From: a virus
Taxonomy: Duplodnaviria; Caudoviricetes
IMG/VR virus record: IMGVR_UViG_3300032280_000651
Coordinates: 15,182-79,181 of that record
Reading direction: 5' to 3' (one strand)
Length of the DNA: 64,000 nucleotides
Below are positions 1,726-3,580 of this stretch, piece by piece. The position numbers were made by a program, and so were the translations under genes. Under the pieces are notes generated by a model. That model was not told the origin of the DNA. It worked only from the letters and a program-made list of their open reading frames with translations, and searched no databases. Each line of letters starts with the position of its first letter. Position 1 is the stretch's first letter.

Positions 1726-1735
1726 TTAATATATA
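1726..1735 (+). promoter_or_regulatory. Recurrent TT(A/T)ATATATA motif, putative phage late/middle promoter (representative copy)
   Basis: Sits 4-5 nt before ATG here and at 3602, 9923, 53170, 56592 (+) and 35994, 38195, 40150, 41127, 42675, 43387, 51089, 54799 (-; 54799 is a GTAATATATA variant). Confidence 0.65.
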
Positions 1736-1740
1736 GTAAT

Positions 1741-1839
1741 ATGAAAAATGTAAATGTAAATATCGTAGTTATGCCGCAGCCGATGCAGGATCAGGATCGT
1801 TTCACGAACCAGACTAACTATGTATTTATATCACATTAA
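1741..1839 (+). CDS. Leader peptide of a tRNA-array attenuator (32 aa, not in the ORF track)
   Basis: MKNVNVNIVVMPQPMQDQDRFTNQTNYVFISH*; control codons ATG CCG CAG CCG ATG CAG GAT CAG GAT at 1771-1797; followed by a terminator and the tRNA genes. Confidence 0.85.
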   Translation: MKNVNVNIVVMPQPMQDQDRFTNQTNYVFISH

Positions 1840-1876
1840 GAAATTACGTGTATAAAAATTACAAATCCGTTAGTCT
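1811..1876 (+). promoter_or_regulatory. Antiterminator helix
   Basis: AGACTAAC(1811-1818) pairs with GTTAGTCT(1869-1876) in the terminator 5' arm; inner helices 1821-24/1860-63, 1825-30/1851-56, 1832-34/1848-50 and a GAAA-capped 1837-39/1844-46. Confidence 0.75.
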
Positions 1877-1897
1877 TTGAGACTAACGGATTTTTTT
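1863..1897 (+). terminator. Intrinsic terminator (attenuator) before the first tRNA
   Basis: AAATCCGTTAGTCT-TTG-AGACTAACGGATTT perfect stem with a 7-T tract at 1891-1897. Confidence 0.9.
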
Positions 1898-1916
1898 ATG
1901 GAATAAAATTAAATAT

Positions 1917-1988
1917 TGGAGTATCGTATAATGGTAATTATTCAGGGTGTTGGCCCCTGCGATTTGGGTTCGAATCCTAATACTCTAA
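1917..1988 (+). tRNA. tRNA-Gln(TTG)-like with non-canonical G33
   Basis: Acceptor TGGAGTA/TACTCTA, anticodon arm CAGGG-TGTTGGC-CCCTG, T-loop TTCGAAT; CCA not encoded. Confidence 0.75.
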
Positions 1989-1994
1989 CAAATA

Positions 1995-2080
1995 CTAGGC
2001 ATTGGGCAGAGGCTATACCCACCTGATTTGGGATCAGGATTCTTAACAGATAATCGTCAGTTCGAATCTGACTGCTTAGA
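1995..2080 (+). tRNA. tRNA-Pro(TGG) with expanded variable region
   Basis: CTAGGCA/TGCTTAG, CCTGA-TTTGGGA-TCAGG, 17-nt variable region, GTCAG-TTCGAAT-CTGAC, A73. Confidence 0.8.
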
Positions 2081-2087
2081 CAAAAAT

Positions 2088-2176
2088 AGTCGTGTGGTGG
2101 CAAAGGTTGCCGACCTGCCTGTCACGCAGGGTTGTCTTCGGACATTGATATGCCGGTTCGAGTCCGGTCACGACTG
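2088..2176 (+). tRNA. tRNA-Asp(GTC) with long variable arm
   Basis: AGTCGTG/CACGACT, CCTGC-CTGTCAC-GCAGG, 21-nt variable region containing TGTC-TTCG-GACA, G73. Confidence 0.8.
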
Positions 2177-2184
2177 CAATATAC

Positions 2185-2258
2185 TGGAGTATCGTATAAT
2201 GGCATAATTACACTGCGTTTTGACCGCAGCAACATAGGTTCGATTCCTATTACTCCAA
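2185..2258 (+). tRNA. tRNA-Gln(TTG)
   Basis: TGGAGTA/TACTCCA, CTGCG-TTTTGAC-CGCAG, ATAGG-TTCGATT-CCTAT. Confidence 0.9.
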
Positions 2259-2267
2259 CAAAAATAA

Positions 2268-2342
2268 CGCGTAACGATCCACAGAGAGAGGTTACCCGAC
2301 TTGGTATCGGGGTTATTGTCAGTTCGAGTCTGACTTACGCGA
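2268..2342 (+). tRNA. tRNA-Pro(TGG) with pyrimidine at position 37
   Basis: CGCGTAA/TTACGCG, CCCGA-CTTGGTA-TCGGG, C1-G72 and A73. Confidence 0.8.
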
Positions 2343-2348
2343 CGAAAT

Positions 2349-2420
2349 AGTGCTGTAGCTCAGTGGAAGAGTGTCTGGTTGTCGCCCAGAAGGTCGCGGG
2401 TTCAATCCCCGTCAGTACTG
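2349..2420 (+). tRNA. tRNA-Asp(GTC)
   Basis: AGTGCTG/CAGTACT, TCTGG-TTGTCGC-CCAGA, G73. Confidence 0.9.
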
Positions 2421-2424
2421 CAAT

Positions 2425-2444
2425 TTCGATTCCGATAGGGACCG
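2425..2444 (+). pseudogene. Possible 3' remnant of a tRNA gene
   Basis: TTCGATT-CCGAT-AGGGACC-G has the T-loop/T-stem/acceptor/discriminator layout with no 5' half. Confidence 0.35.
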
Positions 2445-2482
2445 ATAATTATTTAATATATATAATAAAATAATTATTTATT

Positions 2483-3292
2483 ATGTATGAAAAAGTTTGT
2501 AAGTGGTGTGGTAATTTAATCTCTGTTGAAAAACAACAATCATTTGCATCACATGTCGCTGGATGTATTATGAATCCAAAAGTAGAAGAACGATATAAAA
2601 AGAATAGTGAGCGATTCAAGGGTGTTCTAAAGGTTGAACGAATCGAAATATCTAAAGAGTGTCCTAAATGTAAAGAAATTTTTAAAGTAATTGCAACTGA
2701 ATCAGAAATTAGACGTAATAAGGTCAGATTATTTTGTTCTAGAAAGTGTTCCAATACAAGAATACATTCAGAGAAAACTAAAGAAAAAATGTCATCGGCA
2801 TCAATTGGTATTATTCCTTATAATAAAGGAGTTAAAAAAATTAAAAAATTTACTTGTCTTAAATGTGGTAAAGAAGGTATTATAAAAAGATATAACAATA
2901 AACAGAAGTATCATTCAGAATGTTGGAGATTATCATCTGGTGGTATAAGACAGGGAAGTAGTAGAGGTAAAAGTGGTTGGTATAAAGGTTACTGGTGTGA
3001 TAGTAGTTATGAACTAGCATATCTTATTTACAATTTAGATAATTCTATTTTGATTGAAAGAAATAAAAATGGTTTTGAATATACTCATAATGATGAAAAA
3101 CATTTATTCTATCCTGATTTCATAATAGGAGGTAAATATATTGAGATAAAGAATTATAAATCGGAACTTACTGATAGTAAAATATCACAATTTCCATATG
3201 AAATAGAAATATATTATAAAGAAGAAATGAAACCATTCATAGAATATGTAAAAAATAAATATGGTAAGGATTTTATAAAATTATATGAATAA
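2483..3292 (+). mobile_element. Putative homing endonuclease (Zn fingers plus PD-(D/E)XK domain) inside the tRNA array
   Basis: CxxC motifs; C-terminal DSSYE...YPDF...IEIK nuclease-like motif. Confidence 0.7.
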
Positions 3293-3293
3293 T

Positions 3294-3363
3294 ACCGAGT
3301 GATCTTGGGGATCAGAGACGGTTCATATCTGACTCTAGAAGGGTTCGATCCCCTTGCTCGGTA
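3294..3363 (+). tRNA. Divergent tRNA with CAT anticodon (Met or Ile2)
   Basis: ACCGAGT/GCTCGGT, GACGG-TTCATAT-CTGAC (A.A mismatch), AAGGG-TTCGATC-CCCTT; short atypical D arm. Confidence 0.6.
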
Positions 3364-3369
3364 CAAATT

Positions 3370-3502
3370 GGTAGTGTTAGCACTAAAGTCAGAGATTTAA
3401 TCGGATGACGGGATTATATGATAATGTGAGTTATGTAATTCTAGGAATGGGTGCACCTTGAGGAGGAAATCACATTTGCTGGTTCGAGTCCAGCCACTAC
3501 CG
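3370..3502 (+). ncRNA. 133-nt tRNA-like RNA (acceptor stem and T arm, no canonical anticodon arm)
   Basis: GGTAGTG/CACTACC-G73, GCTGG-TTCGAGT-CCAGC, internal stem AATGTGA(3423-29)/TCACATT(3470-76). Confidence 0.7.
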
Positions 3503-3508
3503 CAAAAT

Positions 3509-3580
3509 GGCGTTGTATCTCAGAGGCAGAGAAGTCGGCTCATATCCGAACGGTCGGGATCTCGGAATTCCCCAACGCTA
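3509..3580 (+). tRNA. tRNA-Met(CAT), elongator-like, atypical T-loop
   Basis: GGCGTTG/CAACGCT-A73, GTCGG-CTCATAT-CCGAA, T arm GGGAT-CTCGGAA-TTCCC. Confidence 0.75.

Follow-up and report, generated by a model that had tools for sequence, protein, structure and literature searches.

The purpose of tRNA genes in large phages, and the way in which they are expressed, are unsettled. The question is raised here by a locus in the 79-kilobase (kb) IMG/VR viral contig IMGVR_UViG_3300032280_000651 (label G000), where a 32-codon open reading frame (ORF) and a hairpin stand directly ahead of an array of tRNA genes. We analyzed bases 15182–79181 of this contig, a stretch of 64,000 nucleotides (nt) that we call the window and whose own numbering is used below unless another record is named. 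What is the short ORF for? The answer that we consider likely is that it serves a ribosome-mediated leader-peptide transcription attenuator gating the phage tRNA operon, and that the phage probably withholds the array tRNAs unless decoding of their codons is slow. This reading builds on the sequence architecture of the unit, the co-variation of leader codons with array content, the specificity of that match for one reading frame, and a switch between RNA folds in silico, each of which we observe directly.

Architecture of the tRNA leader

The elements of the window unit, all on the plus strand, are as follows.

1582–1612, +: promoter-like site P1 (TTTG at 1582–1585, a 19-nt spacer, and TATCTTTG at 1605–1612)
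1653–1684, +: promoter-like site P2 (TTTG at 1653–1656, a 20-nt spacer, and TACTTTTG at 1677–1684)
1690–1740, +: A-rich 5' untranslated region (UTR), conserved among paralogous leaders, with TAATATATA at 1727–1735
1729–1771, +: region 1, the 5' strand of the protector (1:2) helix, spanning the start codon and codons 1–10, from minimum free energy folds
1741–1839, +: leader ORF of 32 codons, ATG to TAA, with a codon match to the arrays in the ATG frame only
1771–1797, +: control-codon run, codons 11–19, Met-Pro-Gln-Pro-Met-Gln-Asp-Gln-Asp (ATG CCG CAG CCG ATG CAG GAT CAG GAT)
1811–1856, +: region 2, in which AGACTAAC at 1811–1818 is the antiterminator strand and 1815–1856 is the 3' strand of helix 1:2
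1863–1900, +: predicted intrinsic terminator (regions 3 and 4), a 14-base-pair (bp) stem at 1863–1893 with five G-C pairs and a 3-nt loop, followed by TTTTTTT at 1894–1900
1917–2421, +: tRNA array (ARAGORN, with Rfam tRNA matches for five of the six genes)

The original prediction, made from the sequence alone, had described the ORF at 1741–1839 with its Met/Pro/Gln/Asp run and a G+C content of 18 of 30 bases at 1771–1800, and all of this is confirmed; G+C across the surrounding 1500–1916 is 22%. For every codon of the control run, the array downstream has an anticodon that can decode it (UGG, UUG, GUC and CAT). The ORF is a short translatable frame lying between promoter and terminator, and a gap of just 16 nt separates the T tract from the first tRNA, which starts at 1917. 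This leaves too little space for a further promoter, and the terminator therefore stands directly 5' of the first regulated gene with none intervening.

The start of the ORF resembles that of other genes in this phage. The element TAATATATA precedes the ATG by 4–9 nt at every leader as well as at several long protein ORFs (window 3600–3615 and 4786–4801; genome 8470–8485 and 71771–71786), and within the phage family it may function in translation start or as part of late promoters. As it is common to leaders and ordinary protein genes, the leader begins in what is a normal start-codon context for the phage. Upstream of it, P1 and P2 are predicted promoters that fit the Bacteroidota consensus of TTTG at −33 and TAnnTTTG at −7, and P2 would place the transcription start near 1690. 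A TAnnTTTG box lies 30–130 nt 5' of the ATG in 30 of the 37 leaders collected below, compared with 9% of background 100-nt windows; the −7 box was used alone here because the −33 element is often TTAGG, and a strict expression (TTTG N18-22 TAnnTTTG) overlooked most units.

Orthologues of the leader occur in four relatives (labels G001, G002, G003 and G004), in LR745206.1 and at locus L039. The LR745206.1 orthologue keeps Pro, Gln and Asp through synonymous changes (CCA/CCG/CCT and CAA/CAG), and tRNAs for Pro, Asp and Gln lie downstream of it. The orthologue in G004 (L093:16263–16476, minus strand) is interrupted after three codons (ATG AAA ATG TGA); an internal ATG opens a Pro-Gln-Pro-Met-Gln-Asp run, and the terminator sequence differs. 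This broken leader is a natural variant that could reveal how a unit behaves without region 1.

Leader codons follow the tRNA content of each array

A search of the contig with its own leader DNA returned a second copy of the 5' part upstream of the window, and the sequence there contains a second and then a third unit. All three arrays of the contig carry a unit, and their codon rosters differ as the arrays differ. The collection was widened by a pattern scan of IMG/VR whose query covered the conserved 5' UTR and extended just seven bases into the ORF, with four whole relatives, parts of a 597-kb relative, and LR745206.1 added. To be retained, a unit needed a short ORF with a tRNA behind it, and composition was no criterion. 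The sample comprises 37 units from 13 viral records in 16 leader classes (clustered at 50% identity), each class being represented by the member with the largest array. Among the matches to the 5' UTR pattern listed for cellular genomes (at least 120 loci), the sole candidate for a leader and tRNA unit is a dubious one of 9 codons, and neither a counterpart in cells nor a pointer to the host emerged. Besides the Met/Pro/Gln/Asp leader of the window, the sample includes the following units.

G000 5454–5555: Leu/Arg leader with five Leu and three AGA codons; hairpin and T-run, then tRNA-Arg(UCU) and five tRNA-Leu
G000 6650–6739: Thr/Asn/Ile/Val/Cys leader; hairpin, then tRNAs for Asn (two), Val, Ile, Cys and Thr (two)
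Relatives: Ser/Arg(CGN) leaders before tRNAs for Ser and Arg(ACG/GCG/UCG)
Relatives: Lys/Phe/His/Trp leaders before tRNAs for those four
Relatives: Ala/Glu/Gly/Tyr leaders before tRNAs for Tyr, Glu, Gly and Ala
Relatives: a Leu-only leader class
LR745206.1, L004:3545–3595: Gln-only leader of 16 codons, seven of them Gln, before three tRNA-Gln inside a larger array

All large arrays of the four relatives have a unit, the exception being a small promoter-driven Met(CAT) pair. In the phage family, a near-complete set of tRNAs is divided among about six such operons, with one codon roster each. The exceptional pair (G001 38840–39125, L076) consists of two CAT tRNAs behind the same type of promoter and 5' UTR, with neither leader ORF nor terminator, which suggests expression without attenuation.

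Whether leader codons co-vary with array content in related phages had been named beforehand as the test of the idea, and they do so across the three units of the genome and the 13 viral records. Over the 16 classes, the amino-acid match of a leader to its own array is 0.416, compared with 0.183 ± 0.033 when arrays are permuted, and the codon match under wobble rules is 0.373 compared with 0.153 ± 0.031; neither value is reached in 200,000 permutations. Of the amino-acid kinds supplied by the arrays, 50 out of 50 are present in the array's own leader, while the permuted fraction is 0.675 and no permutation in 100,000 reaches 1.0. The match is also confined to the reading frame: 35% of the triplets in frame 0 are decoded by the unit's own array, against 11% in each of the two shifted frames (Fisher p ~1e-19). 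Furthermore, it extends to isoacceptors, in that arrays with Arg(UCU) have AGA/AGG codons in their leaders and arrays with Arg(ACG/GCG/UCG) have CGN codons, which make up about 11% of the Arg codons in these genomes. The regulatory codons are therefore cognate to what the operon supplies, both in the run of the window and over the classes. The permuted amino-acid and codon matches were obtained from class representatives, as a whole-ORF match on the redundant units is diluted by truncated loci and by an N-terminus (Met-Lys-Thr/Asn...) that is conserved among the leader classes.

One proposed refinement fared less well. It had been suggested that G-ending codons such as CAG and CCG make the leader sensitive to wobble decoding, and G-ending codons do account for 28% of control codons where 7% are expected, an enrichment of about four-fold (87 of 392 versus 18 expected in the full redundant set). 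They are also enriched about three-fold among the other leader codons (18% versus 6%). As the enrichment extends beyond the control codons, selection on RNA structure can explain the bias, and a role as a wobble-sensitivity device is not established.

Not every leader has its own promoter, and some lie directly behind the tRNAs of a preceding array. Examples are the Gln-only leader of LR745206.1 and the Ser/Arg leaders at G001 24177, at G002 31465 and at the equivalent sites of G003 and G004. With leaders nested in this way, a single transcript would traverse successive gates.

Alternative RNA folds and the position of the ribosome

The leader transcript (1690–1916) folds with −47.8 kcal/mol, compared with −29.2 ± 3.6 kcal/mol for shuffled sequences (z = −5.2). 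The three mutually exclusive helices that had been proposed, with a 14-bp terminator and its T7 tract before the first tRNA, are present letter for letter. In helix 1:2, CGTAGTTA at 1764–1771 pairs with TAACTATG at 1815–1822, and in the antiterminator helix 2:3, AGACTAAC at 1811–1818 pairs with GTTAGTCT at 1869–1876. The 8-mer AGACTAAC occurs twice, in the ORF at 1811–1818 and again in the 3' arm of the terminator at 1880–1887, in keeping with an antiterminator that competes for the 5' arm of the terminator. The duplex between region 2 and this 5' arm has an energy of −10.3 kcal/mol (p = 0.037 against shuffles). Across the six orthologues, 70.5% of the alignment cells of helix 1:2 are paired, in comparison to 32–45% when the helix is slid, and nine pairs are altered on both sides, that is, by compensatory changes.

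We then folded transcripts cut before the 3' arm while a 30-nt ribosome mask was shifted along the leader one codon at a time. Without a ribosome, the window unit has pairing probabilities P(1:2) = 0.97 and P(2:3) = 0, with P(3:4) = 0.94 in the full-length fold. A single ribosome at 1771–1780 breaks the protector helix (P(1:2) = 0) and gives P(2:3) = 0.3–0.43, and with a second ribosome queued behind it, P(2:3) is at least 0.9 at each control codon. With the ribosome at 1807–1837, P(2:3) returns to 0. The outcome is the three-state scheme of the trp and his leaders: terminator with no ribosome, antiterminator with a stall, and terminator once the ribosome has moved past. The helix-specific probabilities were used because the generic profile of pairing at the terminator 5' arm is flat for this unit, in which the predicted partner of the arm is the 5' UTR.

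The same elements recur in the rest of the family. Every unit has a hairpin and T-run 5–27 nt before its first tRNA-like sequence, which in L027 and L039 is one that ARAGORN overlooked. In 10 of 15 representative units the strongest leader partner of the terminator 5' arm pairs better than dinucleotide shuffles (p ≤ 0.04), and this partner sits just 3' of the control codons. Pairing of each leader with its own terminator arm has a mean energy of −8.99 kcal/mol, compared with −6.20 ± 0.56 kcal/mol when arms are exchanged between units (0 of 100,000 permutations), from which it follows that the antiterminator co-varies with the terminator. In mask scans of most units, the terminator 5' arm is sequestered for as long as the A site occupies N-terminal or control codons, and it is free once the ribosome is on region 2.

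Proposed mechanism and its difficulties

Translation, termination, kinetic competition and the direction of the response are what we infer from these sequences, and they combine into the following scheme. The host RNA polymerase would initiate near 1690 at a Bacteroidota-type promoter, and a ribosome would translate the 32-codon leader as the polymerase proceeds. If tRNA-Gln, -Pro, -Asp or -Met(CAT) were scarce, this ribosome and one queued behind it would stall on 1771–1797, masking region 1 and leaving AGACTAAC at 1811–1818 free. That strand would pair with 1869–1876 before the 3' arm is synthesized, and the polymerase would read through into the array. With rapid decoding the ribosome would cover region 2, the terminator would fold, and transcription would end at about 1900; with no ribosome at all, helix 1:2 would lock region 2 away and the terminator would fold as well. 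The net effect would be negative feedback, in which the array is made until its own or the host tRNAs restore decoding speed. The original prediction had named depletion or nuclease cleavage of host tRNAs as the signal, but the trigger need not be cleavage, and a host nuclease, starvation, or plain feedback of supply and demand may each serve.

Several results weigh against this scheme. The stall-switch logic as first set out stands in that mask folding recovers its three states for the window unit, and falls short in two respects. First, a single ribosome at the later control codons (1786–1798) allows helix 1:2 to re-form, with P(2:3) = 0, so a queued second ribosome must be assumed. Second, the terminator outcompetes the antiterminator at equilibrium even with stalled ribosomes (P(3:4) ~0.9), so read-through depends on an assumed kinetic window, as it does in the classical systems. 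Additionally, column-wise covariation of the short helix 2:3 in the six orthologues is no better than in controls, and 5 of the 15 representative units lack a significant region 2 duplex. Nor is the scheme uniform across the family, as most paralogues are predicted to form the antiterminator in the absence of a ribosome and have no 1:2 protector; with no protector helix in the untranslated state, the default there may be read-through rather than termination. Finally, the rosters overlap the conserved N-terminus of all leaders, which is rich in Asn, Thr, Ile and Val, and this inflates cross-matches to one array class.

Some of these difficulties lend themselves to a different account, in which leader translation controls the array by another route or with the opposite sign, and the hairpin is a fixed partial terminator or a processing signal. 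A stall might, for example, uncouple the ribosome from the polymerase and lead to Rho-dependent or intrinsic termination, or it might affect processing or stability of the precursor. The preference for the terminator at equilibrium, the units with no clear antiterminator, and the variation of the no-ribosome state among paralogues would all suit such an account, which we nevertheless regard as unlikely. Region 2 mimics and co-varies with the terminator 3' arm of its own unit and is placed where a ribosome past the control codons would cover it, and under a fixed terminator this arrangement would be purposeless. A response of opposite sign, in which tRNA shortage yields fewer tRNAs, would be positive feedback and makes little biological sense.

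It is also conceivable that the leader is untranslated and that free tRNAs dock by their anticodons directly onto its in-register codons, switching the terminator in the manner of a T-box with multiple specifiers. T-box leaders sense tRNA without ribosomes, and the leader codons are complementary to the array anticodons. However, the match is restricted to the frame opened by a conserved ATG, whose start context is normal, and an in-frame stop closes every unit. This dependence on the reading frame argues for decoding by a ribosome, as does the retention of amino acids through synonymous changes in orthologues. The leader also has no equivalent of Stem I or of the T-box bulge. A cmscan of 1500–3800 against Rfam at E ≤ 1 returned tRNA, the sub-threshold terminator-like tsr31, and YrlA noise, and in that interval neither a T-box or other riboswitch family nor a Trp, His, Leu, Thr or Phe leader family was matched. 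We consider sensing of this kind very improbable.

Leader peptides that act in trans, like peTrpL, exist (PMC7298713), and those of the phage could in principle be functional small proteins of this type, with the codon roster secondary. The N-terminus conserved among classes would be expected of such proteins, yet its codons coincide with RNA region 1, and the remainder of the peptides differs completely between classes and tracks array content rather than any structural motif; we give this reading hardly any weight. As for an ordinary, very small gene that ends in the hairpin, or a hairpin that terminates the gene upstream, with the codon likeness due to chance or base composition, short ORFs and hairpins are indeed common in AT-rich DNA and one of the two CAT tRNAs goes unrecognized by ARAGORN and Rfam, but coincidence is rejected by the permutation and frame tests on units chosen by 5' UTR motif and downstream tRNA, by the presence of the unit at all three arrays of the genome and the large arrays of four relatives, and by the isoacceptor-level match for Arg, and has next to no chance of being correct. 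The reading that best accounts for the locus is a leader-peptide attenuator in front of the tRNA genes.

The tRNA array and neighboring genes

The genes behind the window leader, all on the plus strand, form tandem same-strand tRNA genes in a viral genome, that is, a phage tRNA gene array. They are listed below, the first six as called by ARAGORN.

1917–1989, +: tRNA-Gln(UUG)
1995–2081, +: tRNA-Pro(UGG), 87 nt
2088–2177, +: tRNA-Asp(GUC), 90 nt, with a UUCG-capped arm
2185–2259, +: tRNA-Gln(UUG)
2268–2343, +: tRNA-Pro(UGG)
2349–2421, +: tRNA-Asp(GUC)
2483–3292, +: Cys-rich ORF of 269 amino acids that splits the array (NUMOD3 match, E = 0.0015, below the Pfam cut-off)
3294–3366, +: degenerate tRNA-like gene, folding with CAT inside a loop of 7 nt, below the ARAGORN and Rfam thresholds
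3369–3499, +: tRNA-like element of 131 nt, whose 7-bp acceptor stem is perfect and whose T arm is canonical
3509–3580, +: tRNA with anticodon CAT (Rfam tRNA, 38.9 bits)

The array had been predicted to encode Gln, Pro, Asp and CAT tRNAs, two of each. This holds for the Gln, Pro and Asp pairs and for the CAT tRNA at 3509–3580, homologues of which lie behind the same array class in G001 and G002. The second CAT gene, at 3294–3366, is recognized by neither tool but is 79% identical to a tRNA-Met(CAT) that ARAGORN finds in the same array class of relative G004. In the 131-nt element at 3369–3499, about 100 nt replace the D and anticodon arms; the element matches no Rfam family, and by BLAST it has no copy in the relatives that were fetched.

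Several of the array tRNAs are structurally odd. The U at position 33 of tRNA is near-universal, and the first tRNA-Gln (1917–1989) has a G there in an anticodon loop that reads U-G-UUG-G-C, while the loop of the second copy (2185–2259) is normal. Many anticodons are represented by two genes, of which one has the canonical length and the other, at 81–94 nt, carries an additional hairpin within its variable region; examples from relatives are Asn 72/89, Cys 75/89, Thr 74/82 and Ile 74/94 nt. Normally, only tRNAs for Leu, Ser and Tyr have a long variable arm.

The ORF at 2483–3292 is possibly a homing endonuclease, judging from its weak NUMOD3 match, and a 97% identical copy occupies the same site in G002. 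The arrays of G000, G003 and G004 are split by other endonuclease-like ORFs. Elsewhere in the window are a ClpB/ATP-dependent protease-like ORF at 11680–13782 (phrog_4871; 70% identical to ORFs of the 634–642 kb phages) and, at 48479–49729, an RNA ligase-like ORF (phrog_562) that could have a role in the repair of cleaved tRNAs.

Source genome and relatives

The 79-kb contig has a CheckV completeness of 28% and a G+C content of 29%. ARAGORN finds 19 tRNAs in it, all on one strand, and 35–47 per relative. The closest public records are the uncultured metagenomic phage genomes LR745206.1 and LR756502.1 (634 and 642 kb), a relationship that rests on 70% protein identity of the ClpB-like ORF and hence on a query protein that is a poor guide to phage taxonomy. 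PMC7162821 places genomes of this size class in the Mahaphage clade with predicted Bacteroidetes hosts. The Bacteroidota type of the promoter boxes fits with that host phylum.

Implications

If the attenuator operates as proposed, a built-in sensor of decoding speed at exactly the codons that each array serves would show that phage tRNAs are synthesized on demand. It would link the function of these tRNAs to the condition of the host tRNA pool, be it a mismatch in codon usage, host shut-off, or a tRNA-cleaving defense. It would also extend leader-peptide attenuation from amino-acid and synthetase operons to RNA genes and to viruses, and present an attenuator that has been duplicated and re-programmed merely by rewriting its codon roster. 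The rosters can help to annotate the decoding identity of odd phage tRNAs, and for synthetic biology the units offer compact tRNA-responsive switches that can be programmed.

We also put forward, as a tentative possibility with somewhat more against it than for it, that the units together make up a distributed, multi-channel monitor of the tRNA pool. Here about six gated operons covering all twenty amino acids, some with nested leaders and rosters at the level of isoacceptors, would replace groups of tRNAs depleted by host anticodon nucleases, by starvation, or by the phage's own host shut-off. The attenuators would then be switches for an inducible counter-defense and not a simple housekeeping feedback.

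Comparison with known systems

Phage tRNA clusters are well known, and those of T4, T5 and huge phages (PMC7162821, PMC6409571) are arrays in large genomes that, like this one, are often split by homing-endonuclease-like ORFs. The tRNA passages of PMC7162821 mention no dedicated cis-regulatory sensor before the arrays. In a full-text literature search, the papers that mention phage tRNAs or tRNA gene clusters contained no mention of a leader peptide or attenuator, in agreement with the earlier impression that no tRNA-array attenuator of this kind had been described. Leader-peptide attenuation itself is known; its control of tRNA genes we did not find described. A possible precedent in Escherichia coli, a Phe-rich leader before the tRNA-Phe genes, was discarded, as there is no such ORF upstream of pheV in MG1655.

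A similar layout is present in the Caulobacter phage phiCbK (JX100813 49540–49769; L225:2541–2770). There an annotated 45-residue gp083 is followed by an annotated terminator and then by tRNAs for Pro, Pro, Lys, Lys, Leu (three) and Ser (two), and Pro, Lys, Leu and Ser together account for 23 of the 44 residues that follow the first one of gp083. Two further annotated terminators precede other tRNA blocks of this phage. Because phiCbK can be cultured, its layout makes the idea directly testable.

T-box riboswitches share with the phage unit a 5'-leader choice between terminator and antiterminator that reports the state of specific tRNAs. They differ in that T-boxes bind uncharged tRNA through a specifier codon with no ribosome, whereas the phage signal is tied to the reading frame. 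Closer in its target is pheM-pheST, together with other synthetase-operon attenuators (for which a comparative survey is cited as ref. 7 in PMC4833913), in which a leader peptide attenuates a translation component that sets charged-tRNA supply, as in the phage unit. In pheM-pheST the regulated product is one synthetase, specific for a single amino acid and encoded by a cell, while the target of the phage unit is a set of tRNA genes of many specificities in a virus.

The closest likeness is to trpL, hisL, leuL, thrL, pheL and ilvGMEDA of E. coli and Salmonella, which likewise have a promoter, a short translated ORF with clustered regulatory codons, exclusive 1:2, 2:3 and 3:4 helices, and an intrinsic terminator just before the first gene. 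Multivalent rosters exist among these as well, with ilv combining Ile, Val and Leu and thr combining Thr and Ile. Unlike them, the phage rosters comprise up to six or seven amino acids at the level of isoacceptors, and the phage units have been multiplied and diversified within one genome, some lying inside arrays behind other tRNAs. What is regulated differs too: downstream of the phage leader are tRNAs and one endonuclease-like ORF, in place of enzymes for amino-acid biosynthesis or aminoacyl-tRNA synthetases. Classical leader-peptide attenuators respond to the supply of charged tRNA (mechanism: PMC1183508), and the his leader has been employed as a meter of codon speed (PMC4046918). In the amino-acid operons the sensor is the speed of a ribosome at specific codons, as it would be in the phage unit, and since the genes regulated by the phage unit are the tRNAs themselves, the loop would close on the tRNA pool. 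In logic, the step from attenuators that sense charged tRNA to the control of tRNA genes is a short one.

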